From Candidatus Micrarchaeota archaeon (GTDB lineage Archaea; Micrarchaeota; Micrarchaeia; Anstonellales; Bilamarchaeaceae), in contig JBGFRX010000008.1 in the NCBI GenBank assembly GCA_041694885.1, positions 1 to 61,191 of the forward strand: 61,191 nucleotides of DNA, read 5' to 3'. The notes beneath the pieces are model-generated. The model did not search any database, was not told the DNA's origin, and worked only from the letters and a program-made list of their open reading frames with translations. The number at the start of each line of letters is the position of its first letter. Within the stretch, counting starts at the first letter, position 1. The position numbers were made by a program, and so were the translations under genes. This document shows positions 5,657-60,169 of the stretch, piece by piece.

Positions 5657-5749
5657 AAATGTGAATGATTCGACTTAGGTACATCTTAAGTAAGGAGGTT
5701 TTAAATCGTTTATTCGATAGTAAGTAACACTGCTTATCAGGTGGTTTTC

Positions 5750-8701
5750 ATGAAAATGAAACAGGTAAGTGAAGCAATCTGGGAAATAGAAAAAGAGGGG
5801 ACGATGAAGGTTCCTGCATGGATATTCGGGACGCAGAAAGTGATGGAAAAGATGAAGAGAGACAGGACGCTCATGCAGCTGCAAAACGTGGCCTCGCTGG
5901 AAGGGATAGTGGAGCGCGCGATGGTGATGCCGGATGGGCATGAAGGATATGGATTTCCAATAGGGGGGGTTGCGGCTTTTGATGCTGAAGAGGGGATTGT
6001 TTCGCCCGGCGGAATTGGTTATGACATCAACTGCACCGACGGTGAAACAAAAGTATTGCTTGAACATGGTGCATACGTAAAAATAAAAGAAATGGAAAAT
6101 GATGTTGGCGCAAGCCGCACGAAATTTGCCGACTTAAATGATTTTTCATTATCTAATGCAAATGTAATGCTTTTCATGAAGCGCCCTGAAAAGCAATGCA
6201 TTTACGAGATAACGACAAAAACCGGAAAATTGCTGCGAGTTACAGGCGACCACCCCGTTTATTCGAAAGCCGGCATGATAAAAACAGAAAAAATCAGCGT
6301 TGGCGATTCCATAGCCGTCTCAGCATATGAAGGCGTCCAATACAGGAAACCGGATGACGAGGTTATCCTGGATGAAACAACTATGGGGAATGCCATCATG
6401 TCGAAGAGAAAATCTGCGGGCGGCAATGCGTTGCCCCAAATATTGAATGATCTCAGGAAGCGCGTTTTCTTCCCCCTCAGGTATTCCAGCGTCCAGCTGC
6501 CCTACTTAGCAAAAATTCTGGGTTACGTCTTCGGAGATGGTTCTATTTCGTTCATAAAAGGCAAAAAAGGCATCGTATGGTTCTATGGCAGGGAAAACGA
6601 CCTTGAAAAGATACGCGCCGATATAGAAAAAACCGGGTTCAAACCTTCTAAAATTTACAAACGCCTGCGGGCCCATAAGGTCGCAACCCACTATAAAAAT
6701 TATGAGTTTATGCACGTAGAATGCAGCTTTAATGTAAAGTCATCAGCATTTGCGCATCTTCTTGTTGCTCTCGGGGCTCCATCAGGCCTCAAGACGACCC
6801 AGAAATATGGATTGCCACAATGGTTGTTCAAGGCGCCATTGTGGATAAAACGATTATTTCTGGCAGCTTTCTTCGGCGCCGAGTTGTCAGCGCCAGCCAC
6901 GCCCAACAAATACAATTTTTATTCTCCGGCCCTCGGAATGAACAAACTTGAGGTGCTGGAGCCTAATGCAGTTGCTTTCCTGGAGCAGATCAAACGGCTT
7001 CTGAAAGAGTTTGATATCGCGACGGGCCCAATCGCAAAGGTCACAGGCTATGGATTAAATGGAAAAAATGGAACGACTTGCGGTTATAGAATCCAAATAT
7101 CGTCAAACCCTGAGAATCTCCTGAAGTTCTTTGAAAATGTCTCGTATGAGTATCATTCGGAAAAGTTCCGGAATGCATGCCTGGCAGCTAACTATATCCG
7201 GCTGAAAGAAAGGGTGAACGCAGAACGTGCGCGTGTTCGCGAATTAGCGGTTGCGATGTATTCTGATGGAAAAAGCGCCAGCGAAATAAGGTTCGAACCT
7301 GAAGGCATTCATACTTCTGCGCAGCTCATAAAACACTCTCTTTGGTCAGATTTCAGGGAAACTCCGAGGGTTGCATTTAATTTCATGTCGTTTGCAGAAT
7401 ACCGGGACAAATTCGCATTAGGGAACGGAGGACTCGCTTGGGACGAAGTTGAAGATGTACACCAGGTACCTTTTGACGATTTCGTTTATGACATCACGAT
7501 TGAAGATAACAATCACAACTTCATCGCGAACGGAATCGTGGTTTCAAATTGCGGCGTCCGCCTCGTTCGCACCGGTCTGACTGTCGAGCAGGTCAAGCCA
7601 AAAATAAAGCAACTGGCGGACAAATTGTTCGTGAATGTTCCTTCAGGAGTAGGTAGCGAGGGCAAATTACGGCTTTCGCACGAGGAACTGGACAAGGTAG
7701 CGCGCGAAGGAACGGAATGGGCCATTGAAAAGAGCTACGGGTGGAAGGAAGATCTCGAAAGAACGGAAGAATATGGAAGGATGGAAGGCGCAGATCCCTC
7801 GAAAGTGACTCCTACTGCAAAAGCCAGAGGGAAATCCCAACTCGGGACTTTAGGAGCAGGAAATCACTTTTTGGAAATACAGAAAATGGAGAAAGTGATG
7901 CACGAAAGCGCTGCGAAGGCGTTCGGGCTCGTGGAAAATGAAGTAGTGGTGATGATACACTGTGGCTCCCGCGGCTATGGGCACCAGATTTGCACGGATA
8001 ATCTGGGCACGATGCTCAACCTTGCGAACAAGATGAATTTGTGGCTTCCGGACAGGGAACTCGTTTATTCGCCGATAAAGACCCAGGAGGCGCAGAATTA
8101 CCTCGCAGGGATGAAGTGCGCCGTGAACTTCGCGTTTGCGAACAGGCAGATGATAATGCACTGGGTGAGGCAAACGTTCGATGAAGTGATGGGTAAAGGC
8201 ACGAGCGACAACATGCATCTGGTTTATGATGTTGCGCACAACATTGCAAAGGTGGAGGAGCACGAGGTTGAGGGAAAAAGAAGGAAACTGATGGTGCACA
8301 GAAAGGGGGCGACGCGCGCATTTCCTGCTGGAAGGCCTGAGCTTCCGCCAATATATAGAAACATTGGTCAGCCGGTAATAATTCCGGGTTCGATGGGAAC
8401 CGCGAGTTACGTACTTGTGGGAAATCCGAAAGGGCTCAAGGTCGCGTGGGGGACCACATGCCACGGCTCTGGAAGAGTAATGAGCAGGGGGGAGGCGATA
8501 AGGACGCACGACCCGAACAAAATCGTCAAGGAACTCGCGGACAAGGAAGGGATTTACATACGCGCTACTGACAAGAAAGTGATTTCAGAAGAGGCGCCGG
8601 ACGCGTACAAGAACGTTGATGACGTGGTACAGAGCATCGCGCTTGCGGGTATTTCGGATATTGTCGCGAGGATGAAGCCGTTGGCAGTTGTGAAGGGTTA
8701 G
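5750..8701 (+). CDS. rtcB: RNA-splicing ligase RtcB, intein-containing
   Basis: MPDGHEGYGFPIGGV, GYDIN/CGVR, LGTLGAGNHFLE, HCGSRG, HRKGATRAF, IIPGSMG, TCHGSGR. About 480 aa after intein removal. Confidence 0.97.
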   Translation: MKMKQVSEAIWEIEKEGTMKVPAWIFGTQKVMEKMKRDRTLMQLQNVASLEGIVERAMVMPDGHEGYGFPIGGVAAFDAEEGIVSPGGIGYDINCTDGETKVLLEHGAYVKIKEMENDVGASRTKFADLNDFSLSNANVMLFMKRPEKQCIYEITTKTGKLLRVTGDHPVYSKAGMIKTEKISVGDSIAVSAYEGVQYRKPDDEVILDETTMGNAIMSKRKSAGGNALPQILNDLRKRVFFPLRYSSVQLPYLAKILGYVFGDGSISFIKGKKGIVWFYGRENDLEKIRADIEKTGFKPSKIYKRLRAHKVATHYKNYEFMHVECSFNVKSSAFAHLLVALGAPSGLKTTQKYGLPQWLFKAPLWIKRLFLAAFFGAELSAPATPNKYNFYSPALGMNKLEVLEPNAVAFLEQIKRLLKEFDIATGPIAKVTGYGLNGKNGTTCGYRIQISSNPENLLKFFENVSYEYHSEKFRNACLAANYIRLKERVNAERARVRELAVAMYSDGKSASEIRFEPEGIHTSAQLIKHSLWSDFRETPRVAFNFMSFAEYRDKFALGNGGLAWDEVEDVHQVPFDDFVYDITIEDNNHNFIANGIVVSNCGVRLVRTGLTVEQVKPKIKQLADKLFVNVPSGVGSEGKLRLSHEELDKVAREGTEWAIEKSYGWKEDLERTEEYGRMEGADPSKVTPTAKARGKSQLGTLGAGNHFLEIQKMEKVMHESAAKAFGLVENEVVVMIHCGSRGYGHQICTDNLGTMLNLANKMNLWLPDRELVYSPIKTQEAQNYLAGMKCAVNFAFANRQMIMHWVRQTFDEVMGKGTSDNMHLVYDVAHNIAKVEEHEVEGKRRKLMVHRKGATRAFPAGRPELPPIYRNIGQPVIIPGSMGTASYVLVGNPKGLKVAWGTTCHGSGRVMSRGEAIRTHDPNKIVKELADKEGIYIRATDKKVISEEAPDAYKNVDDVVQSIALAGISDIVARMKPLAVVKG
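6032..7549 (+). mobile_element. RtcB intein (506 aa) with LAGLIDADG-type domain
   Basis: Interrupts DIN|CGVR. Starts CTDGET, ends NFIANGIVVSN, +1 Cys. Endonuclease blocks LGYVFGDGS and a degenerate FLAAFFGAELS. Confidence 0.95.
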
Positions 8702-56901: not shown

Positions 56902-57043
56902 ATGTTCCGTTTCACCAGAAGAATTTTCCCGTTTTGGATTATCACCGCGTCTGCTGCGATTTGGCGCATGCATCGTATTCGAACTTAATGTATTTTAATT
57001 GGCTTCCAATCAAATTAAAATTTCATTAATCGGTGAAAAATTC

Positions 57044-60000
57044 ATGGATTTGGGAAAGAAGCTGCGGGATGCGCTTGCGAAAATCGCGAATCTCCCTGTT
57101 GTGGATGAAGCAGCAGTGAAAGGGCTGATAAAGGAGCTCCAGCGCACACTCATCTCGAGCGACGTGAACGTGAAATTGGTATTCGAATTGTCGAAGCGAA
57201 TAGAGCGGCGAGCCCTGCATGCTGAAAAAATGGAGGCGCTCACGCTCAGAGAGCACGTCCTGAAGGTTGTTTACGACGAATTGATTGGATTGATGGGAGA
57301 AAGTTATGAGCCGCGTGTGGACAGGCACAAGGTTTTATTGCTCGGGCTTTATGGATCGGGGAAATGCGTGCATGGGGACTCGCTTATTCCCCTAGGAGAT
57401 GGAAATGTACGTAGGATTCAGGAAATATATGAGGATTACGCAGCAAGGTTTAAGGCAGAGGAAACCGATGGCGGACAAATCATAAAATGCGGTTCCGAGG
57501 GGCCAATCGTCTATTCTATGAACCAAAAAACCCTTAAAATGGAAAAGAAAGCTGCAACAATTCTATGGAAACTCAAAAAAGATTCCAGACTCATCAGAAT
57601 AAGGTTGAATAATGGAAACAACCAGGATATAATAGTCACTCCGGAGCATCCTTTTTTCGTATTGAAAGGTGGAAATGTTGAAAAAATCAGGGCAGATGAA
57701 CTGACTGTACAAGCAACTGTAGCAGCCCCTGCTTATTTGCCTTATGGGGAAACCACTAAGCGATCTTTCCTGGATGACATTCTGGAAAAATTCAGCAGCG
57801 CATATTACGTGGCTGATAAACCCTTGGCCGAGGCGGTGAAAACGGATTTGCTTACGAAACATGGCACACTTGTCTCAGCGTTTAAGCAATTGCACTTGCC
57901 AATCGCATACTGCACGTTTACCGCTAACATAAAGCGGGGCATAGTGCCTTTGAGTTTGGTAACGCTTTTGGACAAACAAGAATTCCTAACAGCAAGGAAA
58001 AGAATCGTTGTGGCTGGTTCCAGAGGCTCGGTTGTGCAGCGCAAACTTACAATGCTGCCACATGAGGTCGATGAAGAATTGGCAGAATTTTTAGGATATG
58101 TTTTTGGAGACGGATACACCTACAAGGGTTATGTCGAAGTGACGAACAACGATTCCGAGATTCTGGAAAGGTTGGCATATTTGGGGAAACTATTGTTCAA
58201 CATAGAAGGCAGGATAAGGATTGACAAAAGGAATGATGTAAGAAAGATTACGTTCGCCTCCGTTGCTCTTGTCAAACTTGTCCATGACGTGTTCGGTCTG
58301 CCAATCGGCAAGAAAAGCAGGACATTGCGTATGCCGGACATTCTTCTGAAAAGTCCGGATTTTGTACTGAAGTTCTTCTTGCGAGGCTGTTTTGACACAG
58401 ATGGTTTTGTGGACATTACTCGTCGCCACATAGAATATTGCTCGGCAAGCCGGGAATTCATAGAGCAGTTGAGAGTCGTACTTCTCAGATTCGGCATTTT
58501 CTCGGCATTTTCCAAGAAGAGCGTGACTGCCGGAACTTACTATCGCCTATTCCTGCGAAGCGATGATGTCAATACGTTCGCAGAAAAAATTTCCACAGTA
58601 CTTCCAAGGAAACGAAAACGCATGGACGTGCTTTTGGGGATTTCCGGCCAAGGCCAGGGAAGACATCAGATGATTGATGTCGGCAAGCTGCTAAAGTCAG
58701 CGAGGCAATTAAATGGCATTTCGATAGGGGAACTGCAGCACAGCGTGAATTCGTACGGCATTTACGAGCATAGGGGTGAGATATCAAGGGTGGCTCTGAA
58801 AGGTTTCCTCAATGCGATTGAAAGGCCACATAAGAACTGGCTGGCGGTTCTCAAGAACATCAAGAATAGCCACTTTGGAGGTTCCGGCTCAAAAGGTTGG
58901 ATGAATGCCACGATAAGCCGTCTCCAACAGCAGAATTTCGTGGCCAGAGCGCATGGAGAATATAGTATAACCCCCCAAGGCGAGGAATTTTTGGATGATC
59001 TGGAAAAAGCAGACAATTCTGTTGTTGAACAGCTGCGCTTGCTTGCGTTATCAGATGTCTGCTGGATGAAGGTAAAGGATGTTGAAACTGCAGATGGTGG
59101 TGATTATGTATATGATCTAACTGTCGAGGAAAATCACAGCTTTATTGCAAATGGGATTGTGGTCCATAACACAACGTCCGCGAGCAAAGTTGCTTACTTC
59201 TATAAGTCCAGAGGGCTCTCGGTAGCGCTGGTGGGCGCTGATGTGGAAAGGCCTGCTGCACAGGAGCAGCTCAGGCAGCTTGCGAAAAAAATAGGGGTAA
59301 GGTATTACACCACAATGGGCGAGAAGGATGCTGCGAAAGTGGTGGAGAAGGCGCTGAAGGAGTCAAAGGAGGATGTGATAATAGTGGATTCCGCAGGAAG
59401 GAGTGCTTTCGATTCCGAATTAGAATGGGAGCTGCGAGGGATAGCGGATGCGCTCAGGCCTGATGAGAATTACCTTGTGCTGAATGCAGACATAGGCCAA
59501 ATCGCAGGAAAGCAGGCAGGGCAATTCTCCACCATCGTACCGCTTACTGGAGTGATCGTAACGAAAATGGATGGGAGCGGAAAGGGAGGGGGTGCGCTTT
59601 CAGCAGTTGCAGCAACCAAGACGAAAATCGCGTTCATCGGGGTGGGGGAAAAGACCGAAGACTTGGAGATTTACGATGCAAAAAGGTTCGTTTCCCGCTT
59701 GCTCGGAATGCCGGACATAAAGGGGCTCGTGGAAAAAGTGGAGAAGATACATAAGGAAGAGGAACTGGAGGAAATCGAGGGCGAAGAACTAACGATTGGG
59801 AATTTCTACAAGCAGCTCAAGGCAGCCAAGAAGATGGGTCCTTTGGGGAACGTTTTGGGGATGATGGGCATGAGCGATCTTCCAAAGGAGGTGCTCGCGA
59901 CAGGGGAAGAAAAGATGAAGAAATACGAGGCGATGATAAACTCTATGACAAAGGCGGAAAGGAAAGAAGCGTCGCTTTTGCGGAAGAGCAATGCGCGAAT

Positions 60001-60169
60001 AGAAAGAGTGGCGAAAGGCGCTGGCTGCTCGCCCCAAGACGTAAAATCTTTTTTAAATGAATTCGAGAAGATGGAGAAGATGATGAACATGTTCAGGAAG
60101 AACCGCGGATTCAGGAAGCAGATGGAGAAGTTCATGAAGGGAGGAAACTTAAAGGGGCTGGGAATTTAA
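57044..60169 (+). CDS. srp54: Signal recognition particle protein SRP54, intein-containing
   Basis: DVNVKLV, GLYGSGK|TT, DVERPAAQEQL, DSAGR, TKMDGSGKGGGALS, GVGEK, M-domain MINSMT..ER, RIERVAKGAG. About 439 aa after intein removal. Confidence 0.97.
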   Translation: MDLGKKLRDALAKIANLPVVDEAAVKGLIKELQRTLISSDVNVKLVFELSKRIERRALHAEKMEALTLREHVLKVVYDELIGLMGESYEPRVDRHKVLLLGLYGSGKCVHGDSLIPLGDGNVRRIQEIYEDYAARFKAEETDGGQIIKCGSEGPIVYSMNQKTLKMEKKAATILWKLKKDSRLIRIRLNNGNNQDIIVTPEHPFFVLKGGNVEKIRADELTVQATVAAPAYLPYGETTKRSFLDDILEKFSSAYYVADKPLAEAVKTDLLTKHGTLVSAFKQLHLPIAYCTFTANIKRGIVPLSLVTLLDKQEFLTARKRIVVAGSRGSVVQRKLTMLPHEVDEELAEFLGYVFGDGYTYKGYVEVTNNDSEILERLAYLGKLLFNIEGRIRIDKRNDVRKITFASVALVKLVHDVFGLPIGKKSRTLRMPDILLKSPDFVLKFFLRGCFDTDGFVDITRRHIEYCSASREFIEQLRVVLLRFGIFSAFSKKSVTAGTYYRLFLRSDDVNTFAEKISTVLPRKRKRMDVLLGISGQGQGRHQMIDVGKLLKSARQLNGISIGELQHSVNSYGIYEHRGEISRVALKGFLNAIERPHKNWLAVLKNIKNSHFGGSGSKGWMNATISRLQQQNFVARAHGEYSITPQGEEFLDDLEKADNSVVEQLRLLALSDVCWMKVKDVETADGGDYVYDLTVEENHSFIANGIVVHNTTSASKVAYFYKSRGLSVALVGADVERPAAQEQLRQLAKKIGVRYYTTMGEKDAAKVVEKALKESKEDVIIVDSAGRSAFDSELEWELRGIADALRPDENYLVLNADIGQIAGKQAGQFSTIVPLTGVIVTKMDGSGKGGGALSAVAATKTKIAFIGVGEKTEDLEIYDAKRFVSRLLGMPDIKGLVEKVEKIHKEEELEEIEGEELTIGNFYKQLKAAKKMGPLGNVLGMMGMSDLPKEVLATGEEKMKKYEAMINSMTKAERKEASLLRKSNARIERVAKGAGCSPQDVKSFLNEFEKMEKMMNMFRKNRGFRKQMEKFMKGGNLKGLGI
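57365..59170 (+). mobile_element. SRP54 intein (602 aa) with intact-looking LAGLIDADG endonuclease
   Basis: Starts CVHGDS right after the P-loop Lys; block B TPEHPFF; LGYVFGDG and FLRGCFDTDG; ends VYDLTVEENHSFIANGIVVHN; +1 Thr. Confidence 0.95.

Follow-up and report, generated by a model that had tools for sequence, protein, structure and literature searches.

The DNA analysed here, called the window throughout, is positions 1 to 61,191 of contig JBGFRX010000008.1 (61,191 nucleotides) from a Candidatus Micrarchaeota archaeon (assembly GCA_041694885.1, genome G000 in our set), and it carries a gene for SRP54, the GTPase of the signal recognition particle (SRP), that is interrupted by an intein. 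All window coordinates lie on the forward (+) strand. The N-extein (57044..57364, 107 aa) comprises the helical bundle of the N domain and the leading half of the G1/P-loop, whose last residues are GLYGSGK, while the C-extein (59171..60169, 332 aa plus the stop codon) holds Thr+1, the remainder of the GTPase G domain and the signal-peptide-binding M domain. Between them lies the intein (57365-59170), a stop-free run of 1806 nt or 602 codons that starts at Cys1 and ends at His601-Asn602. The Cys1 codon TGC (57365-57367) stands directly after GGA TCG GGG AAA (G-S-G-K), and the His-Asn codons CAT AAC (59165-59170) directly precede the Thr+1 codon ACA (59171-59173) in the context ACA ACG TCC (T-T-S). 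The SRP54 G1/P-loop is thus split after the Walker-A lysine, the junctions reading LLLGLYGSGK / intein / TTSASKVAYF. We conclude, with a probability of roughly 0.88, that the insert is a real canonical class-1 intein, with a LAGLIDADG homing endonuclease (HEN) and accessory DNA-binding modules, placed after the Walker-A lysine of SRP54, for which this genome has no other gene. The original prediction had put a 602-aa intein at 57365-59170 with these motifs, and checking the codons by hand in the DNA showed that placement to be correct to the base.

The precursor lies inside a six-frame open reading frame at 56999..60169 (1056 codons). Since homologs begin MDLGKKLR, the true start is taken to be the ATG at 57044, which gives a precursor of 1041 aa. 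The mechanical reading frame opens at a TTG 45 nt upstream of this conserved ATG, and gene callers may therefore over-extend the N terminus by 15 residues. The exteins are those of an archaeal/eukaryotic-type SRP54, with an N helical bundle, an SRP-type GTPase and a methionine-rich M domain, and all three Pfam models score above their cut-offs (SRP54_N, 1.2e-14; SRP54, 1.3e-53; SRP_SPB, 4.2e-25). In the precursor the SRP54 GTPase profile, covering profile positions 14-196, picks up right after the intein. The exteins also match the NCBIfam models TIGR01425 and TIGR00959, and the intein, by interrupting the match, is the sole reason why the whole-protein TIGR01425 score falls short of its cut-off. 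When joined in silico, the exteins form a 439-aa SRP54 with an intact GLYGSGKTTSASK G1 motif, so that the codons, the profiles and the restored motif together bear out the predicted insertion of a canonical intein between the lysine and threonine of the P-loop. The profile scores, together with 120 independent homologs that share the same junctions, exclude a chance origin.

The intein as a whole is matched by Pfam Intein_splicing (7e-29, precursor residues 115-709). Its splicing domain is divided into HINT-N (residues 1-122, 57365..57730), which is all-beta in the structural model and contains block A with Cys1 and block B, and HINT-C (residues 562-602, 59048..59170), with D584 and H591 in block F and VVHN as block G. 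Both halves exceed the NCBIfam cut-offs (TIGR01445 intein_Nterm, 1.3e-13; TIGR01443 intein_Cterm, 1.4e-10), and the block B motif T92-P-E-H95 (TPEH) can be read in the DNA at 57638-57649. We cut the 120 homologs into extein and intein by alignment and expressed the conservation of each part as its mean pairwise identity. HINT-N and HINT-C reach 0.50 and 0.55, and the SRP54 extein 0.48. Cys1 and H95 are present in all 120 homologs and T92 in 119; D584, H601 and N602 are invariant and H591 essentially so; and residue +1 is threonine in 120/120.

HINT-N is followed by a helical insert (residues ~123-230, 57731..58054), with helices at residues 136-209 in the AlphaFold2 model. It is the most variable part among the homologs (identity 0.29, 24% gaps) and is partly deleted in a few relatives with shorter inteins of 536-549 aa, such as those of G026 and P0010. 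Taken in isolation, the insert (residues 121-230) gave no Pfam match. The LAGLIDADG core (residues 231-420, 58055..58624) is matched by Pfam LAGLIDADG_3 in two stretches (4.5e-22) and has a mean identity of 0.45. Its first motif, LAEFLGYVFGDG (LAEFLGYVFGD249G, 58079-58114), holds Asp249 and its second, KFFLRGCFDTDG (KFFLRGCFDTD346G, 58370-58405), holds Asp346, so the two LAGLIDADG motifs described as intact-looking are indeed whole. The model displays the alpha-beta-beta-alpha-beta-beta-alpha core twice, with helix 237-249, strands 250-253 and 256-260, helix 264-278 and strand region 283-298 in the first repeat, and helix 332-346, strand region 347-360, helix 363-374 and strand region 380-398 in the second. 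Among the homologs D249 is conserved in 115/120, D346 in 116/120 and K317 in 120/120, with glutamate replacing each aspartate in two more.

An accessory DNA-binding region (residues 421-561, 58625..59047) separates the endonuclease from HINT-C and consists of a helical helix-turn-helix (HTH)-like module (~421-488) and a winged helix (~489-561) with the order helix-helix-helix-beta-beta, both modelled at high confidence. The HTH and winged-helix segments noticed in the sequence are therefore real. At 0.52, the HTH-like module matches the splicing blocks in conservation, with the motif G.SIGE.Q..V.SYG.YE..G.ISR retained, and the winged helix has a mean identity of 0.23. Pfam HTH_45 matches this region weakly and below its cut-off (E 4e-4), and HTH_3 or HTH_19 match the equivalent position in FtsY, MCM and T2SSE inteins. 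Our copy keeps D249, D346 and K317 as well as the conserved HTH motif. Every residue that four-step class-1 splicing and two-metal LAGLIDADG catalysis require is thus present. With the endonuclease core and HTH-like module close in identity to the HINT halves, and the catalytic aspartates in >95% of members, the nuclease appears to be under purifying selection.

The AlphaFold2 model of the intein, built on 73 homologs, is of high confidence (mean pLDDT 94.8, pTM 0.92). Foldseek comparison with the PDB places first the inteins PI-TkoII (2cw7, E 1e-26), TliVMA (7qss/7qsu), PI-PfuI (1dq3) and PhoVMA (7qst), and below them PI-SceI, mini-inteins and the free LAGLIDADG enzymes I-DmoI and I-Tsp061I (TM-score on target ~0.7). 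The HINT part fits the mini-inteins PhoCDC21-1, TvoVMA and Pho RadA with a root-mean-square deviation of 1.9-2.4 Å over ~125 columns, and a sequence search of the PDB returned the VMA-b inteins 7qsu/7qss (5e-24) over residues 226-398 of the endonuclease core. The combination of HINT, LAGLIDADG endonuclease and accessory domain is shared with TliVMA/PhoVMA, PI-TkoII and PI-PfuI (fold E 1e-26 to 6e-21; TM-score on target 0.65-0.85), and the P-loop insertion site is shared with the VMA-b inteins TliVMA/PhoVMA. The accessory domain of TliVMA and PI-TkoII has been described as HTH-like by Beyer et al. (PMC8966425), and it likewise sits between endonuclease and HINT-C. As the HTH/winged-helix region of the SRP54 intein occupies that same position, its extra segments are best seen as a larger version of a known module. 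Overall identity to these four inteins is, however, only 16-19%; the SRP54 intein is longer by 65-240 aa, has the additional helical insert ahead of the endonuclease and the second, winged-helix, accessory module, and differs in host, theirs being V-ATPase subunit A, DNA polymerase and ribonucleotide reductase (RNR).

A word-indexed search with the full precursor, clustered at 90% identity, revealed the same allele in at least 219 protein clusters in public databases. The 120 of these 219 clusters that we examined are the homologs described above: all encode proteins of 983-1059 aa with the same five Pfam domains as our precursor, and in every one the insert, of 537-613 aa, occupies the identical site GxxGxGK/C...HN/TT. 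The named records come, by their depositors' own labels, from Micrarchaeota, Iainarchaeum (Iainarchaeota), Woesearchaeota, Pacearchaeota, Nanoarchaeia and metagenome-assembled genomes (MAGs) labelled Thermoplasmatales or Thermoplasmatota. Where the clusters are named at all, they are called 'LAGLIDADG family homing endonuclease', 'SRP receptor subunit alpha' or 'SRP54'. Hundreds of SRP54 intein copies are thus unrecognised in public DPANN MAGs, or mislabelled there as a homing endonuclease or a receptor subunit.

Occupancy is patchy nearer to home. SRP54 is present in all 61 genomes of the order, with the intein in only four, which belong to one family and four genera (G000, G010, G022 and G026), and of 301 genomes sampled evenly across the phylum five (~2%) are occupied. 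Four congeners with full or nearly full SRP54 genes (79-87% extein identity) have a contiguous, empty GLYGSGKTT or GLFGSGKTT, and a contiguous GxxGxGKT is found at the same spot in 29 relatives. The DNA of congener G001 aligns with window positions 57044-57364 and 59168-60168 and with the flanking genes, at 76% identity between the N-extein and its empty counterpart up to base 57364. The alignment breaks at 57364 and at 59168-59171 within a conserved gene neighbourhood, leaving the 1806 bp as a precise extra block. A tree of 54 exteins nests our sequence among the four empty congeners (support 99, starred), and the distribution of the intein on this tree needs at least 8-10 gains or losses. 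The comparison of occupied and empty alleles that had been proposed as a check therefore shows scattered occupancy, with congeners whose site is cleanly empty. Since the intein is present here and all sampled congeners are empty, either an unsampled donor passed it to this lineage or the relatives have lost it repeatedly.

To find the relatives of the intein itself, we searched 1.84 billion representatives exhaustively with phmmer (6541 matches at E <=0.001, 142 at E <=1e-30). After the SRP54 entries, the next-best matches are proteins of 750-1025 aa with SRP54_N, an intein and the SRP54 GTPase and no M domain, i.e., FtsY. Their inteins split GxNGxGK/C...HN/TTxIAK, again after the Walker-A lysine, and the named MAGs that carry them are labelled Aenigmarchaeota, Hadesarchaea and Nanohaloarchaea (e.g., MCD6476668.1 and MBI2076519.1). 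Genes of this kind in public MAGs are P0127, P0128, P0133, P0137, P0138, P0145, P0150, P0155 and P0188. The search also matched inteins in the P-loops of VirB11/T2SSE-type ATPases, SMC, aIF5B, MCM site a and an AAA ATPase.

We built a careful maximum-likelihood tree of 45 inteins (LG+C20+F+G4; support given as ultrafast bootstrap/SH-aLRT), in which the inteins group by host: SRP54 (100/99), FtsY (100/99), IF2 (100/100), SMC (100/100) and MCM-a (100/100). SRP54 and FtsY inteins join at 96/92, and the two together with IF2 separate from the ATPase inteins at 97/91, all these values being starred; co-adaptation to the host near the junctions could inflate such clustering. A larger, quick intein tree agrees with it. 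According to the careful tree, the SRP54 site was colonised once and the homologous site of FtsY holds a sister lineage. The suggested phylogeny against other P-loop inteins thus places FtsY inteins as the sister clade and aIF5B inteins next, with no recent donor found. The FtsY inteins resemble ours in site and in having HINT, LAGLIDADG and HTH parts, and are 32-38% identical to it. They are, however, roughly 60-80 aa shorter (~520-546 aa) and reside in the paralogous partner GTPase in other archaeal phyla, whereas the FtsY of our own genome is empty. Because SRP54 and FtsY inteins are reciprocally monophyletic, we see no sign of ongoing exchange between the two hosts.

The best NCBIfam family match to the intein is NF011418, the intein-containing archaeal IF-2/aIF5B (2.8e-45, residues 49-602), with 154.5 bits against a cut-off of 756 bits for a model that also spans the IF-2 exteins. 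Inteins of this family (NF011418/PRK14845) likewise follow the P-loop lysine of a GTPase, GHVDHGK/C...HN/T of a translational one, with Thr+1, and 'aIF2' is listed with 15 inteins in the main text of Novikova et al. 2016 (PMC4760082). Their host is nonetheless a different one and they form a separate clade, itself supported at 100/100, so that on sequence grounds the SRP54 intein is a relative of the aIF5B/IF-2 P-loop allele and not a member of it. Within the genome, the aIF5B intein is the best match (31% identity). We considered it as a direct donor and rejected it, the two lying in separate, fully supported clades; the SRP54 intein sits in an SRP54-specific clade and not with the other inteins of its genome. 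A comparison of the SRP54 P-loop DNA with that of the genome's own ftsY and aIF5B found only scattered codon matches and no long exact stretch that could serve as a shared homing site, and on this basis we see no evidence in this genome for present-day cross-homing.

A transfer pattern of this kind has a eukaryotic parallel. Gallot-Lavallee et al. 2023 (PMC10710043) describe an SRP-receptor intein in the fungus Rhizophagus, for which transfer between SRP receptor and IF-2P was inferred, and homing between P-loops of non-homologous proteins, with P-loop-to-P-loop transfers in Anaeramoeba. As described there, the Rhizophagus intein also has an SRP-family GTPase as host, and the transfer pattern mirrors our SRP54/FtsY/aIF5B clade; both examples are, however, eukaryotic, and the Rhizophagus host is the receptor and not SRP54. 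It is tempting to regard the SRP54 and FtsY inteins as one lineage specialised on SRP-type GTPases that crossed once between paralogs via the near-identical GxGK/TT P-loop coding sequence, and, at its boldest, to suppose that in some DPANN lineages the co-translational targeting of membrane proteins is now conditionally gated by splicing. We offer this full scenario as a speculation with little chance of holding in its entirety. If true, the SRP54/FtsY crossing would be an archaeal case of intein transfer between paralogs, for which the only formal description to date comes from the eukaryote Anaeramoeba.

The intein and its host gene also have partly separate histories. Pairwise identities of inteins and exteins are moderately correlated (Spearman 0.60), and in 246 pairs the inteins are more than 5 points more alike than the exteins, at most 70% versus 51%. 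Trees of 32 exteins and of their inteins conflict across starred branches: P0034, P0032, P0053 and P0030 switch sides of the deepest split, and P0011 lies in the extein clade of our sequence and outside its intein clade. The inteins of these five SRP54 genes are nearest to those of the other deep extein group, and the genes are good candidates for dating inter-phylum transfers within DPANN. Tree conflict together with a conserved nuclease is the signature of a homing element still moving, at least at the level of the family, and at that level it has moved horizontally among DPANN lineages and some labelled Thermoplasmatota.

Several points weigh against reading our copy as a recently mobile, functional element. 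The closest sampled intein is only 52% identical to it, with a corresponding extein at 68%, and no recent donor can therefore be named. The GC content of the intein (44.9%) is only slightly below that of the exteins (50.5%) and the genome (48.9%), which argues against a very recent foreign arrival. Approximately unbiased (AU) tests reject either deep split when imposed on the other data set (p 7e-56 and 1e-8), for clades that were named after the trees had been seen, and the out-group inteins of the 45-sequence tree came from the 150 best matches to our intein, a sample biased toward its relatives. Splicing and DNA cleavage, too, are read from conserved residues. The proposal of a mobile, possibly still homing intein thus stands for the family, on patchy occupancy, empty congeners, catalytic aspartates in 115-116 of 120 homologs and tree conflict, and lacks a recent donor for this particular copy.

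These same observations bear on the idea that the intein splices and has become immobile in this lineage, its nuclease intact-looking yet inactive or without a target, and survives only because an essential P-loop would be ruined if the intein were lost imprecisely. The 52% versus 68% identities fit long residence, as does a GC content near that of the host, and there is precedent in the PhoVMA intein, whose endonuclease is inactive despite a normal fold (PMC8966425). Our copy nevertheless retains D249, D346, K317 and the HTH motif, targets exist in the genus, where congeners are empty, and the family has clearly moved horizontally; we therefore consider immobility unlikely, though a reasonable alternative to the reading of the insert as a canonical intein with a homing endonuclease that could still be working.

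For such an intein we propose the following course of events, the splicing steps being taken from established intein chemistry. The 1041-aa precursor would be translated first. Cys1 would then undergo an N-S acyl shift, helped by Thr92 and His95 of block B; attack by Thr+1 would give a branched intermediate; and cyclisation of Asn602, helped by His601 and block F, would be followed by ligation of the exteins, restoring GLYGSGK-TT in an active 439-aa SRP54. The freed intein would cut intein-less SRP54 alleles at ~30-40 bp spanning the P-loop codons, its HTH and winged-helix modules helping to recognise the empty coding sequence, and repair of the cut allele would copy the intein in by gene conversion, i.e., homing. 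The unspliced precursor should be inactive, as it cannot bind GTP with the P-loop lysine and the following Thr/Thr 602 residues apart. Because this is also the only SRP54 copy in the genome, established biochemistry implies that SRP-dependent targeting depends on splicing, as had been anticipated.

This dependence invites the suggestion that the host has come to use the intein as a conditional switch, with redox state, temperature or metal gating splicing and hence SRP54 activity and co-translational targeting. Lying within the catalytic loop of a GTPase that the cell cannot do without, the intein would be well placed for such a role, the precursor contains several cysteines besides Cys1, and conditional splicing is documented in other P-loop inteins such as Pho RadA and mycobacterial DnaB. 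We find, however, no sequence feature specific to regulation; with ~2% of phylum genomes occupied and close relatives lacking the intein, the host does not need it; and a retained nuclease and horizontal transfer fit a selfish element, which makes the switch very improbable. Scarcely credible is an artefact, whether mis-assembly placed the intein of a different gene in SRP54 or the locus is a pseudogene whose insert does not splice: the source is a MAG of 41 contigs, but the frame is open over 1041 codons, the exact K/C and N/T junctions restore the motif, the same junctions recur in 120 independently assembled sequences (NCBI, JGI, ENA and Logan), so that chimeric assembly appears very unlikely, the intein falls in an SRP54-specific clade unlike any other intein of this genome, and there is no second SRP54 copy.

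The SRP54 intein is an element of the ordinary selfish kind, a HEN-intein in a P-loop, and what appears new is its host. In the full-text literature, with curated intein registries and survey supplements lying outside the search, no paper turned up in which SRP54, Ffh or archaeal FtsY naturally hosts an intein, and archaeal FtsY accordingly appears undescribed in this role. Papers that join inteins with FtsY, Ffh or SRP54 were set aside, as they concern engineered intein tags or are unrelated. The main text of the largest prokaryotic intein survey (PMC4760082) names aIF2, VirB11, MCM, RadA and others as hosts and no SRP protein, and the nearest published mention is the SRP-receptor intein of Rhizophagus (PMC10710043). 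The earlier impression that SRP54 was not a documented host holds for the literature searched; the allele itself already sits, mislabelled, in those public protein clusters. The main added value of our analysis lies in the SRP54/FtsY/aIF5B relationship and in the annotation problem in DPANN MAGs.

These results add SRP54 and its receptor FtsY to a list of intein hosts dominated by replication and repair proteins. They also provide a clean archaeal case of one intein lineage at homologous P-loops of paralogous GTPases (SRP54 and FtsY, then aIF5B), of a homing-cycle pattern, in which alleles with and without the intein are intermingled as far down as the genus, and of intein movement between archaeal groups that diverged deeply. 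SRP54 often serves as a single-copy marker in phylogenomics and in estimating completeness, and analyses of both kinds can be distorted by a 600-aa insert that goes unrecognised. Protein engineering gains from this family a new supply of Thr+1 inteins, and of meganucleases with long targets and modular HTH/winged-helix accessory domains.

The window holds a second intein, of 506 aa (6032-7549, within the open reading frame 5705-8698, +), in RtcB at GYDIN/C...VVSN/CGVR, which ends in Ser-Asn rather than His-Asn. The 0.92-Mb genome, which is 93.6% complete, has about ten inteins in all, or ~1 per 92 kb, a density comparable with that of Methanocaldococcus jannaschii, whose genome has long been cited as the richest in inteins. 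The hosts are SufB (two inteins), GyrB (a mini-intein), aIF5B (P-loop), class II RNR, RadA (P-loop), RpoA'', whose intein apparently begins with serine, a polyprenyl synthase, RtcB and SRP54. The loci outside the window are C31:8911-12540, C12:68490-71108, C15:26761-30561, C15:32473-35757, C5:3113-5605, C2:13395-15893 and C32:25158-27539. The last of these (-) encodes a trans-polyprenyl diphosphate synthase (IdsA/GGPPS-like), interrupted before the first Asp-rich motif at ELFHNF/C...VVHN/SLIHDDIEDD. Among the papers listed for inteins together with prenyl synthases, none mentioned an intein, and this host may also be undescribed. The aIF5B intein (C15:26761-30561, -) has a Pro/Gly/Arg/His/Ser-rich stretch of ~80 aa between HINT-N and the endonuclease, which probably explains its long branch in trees.

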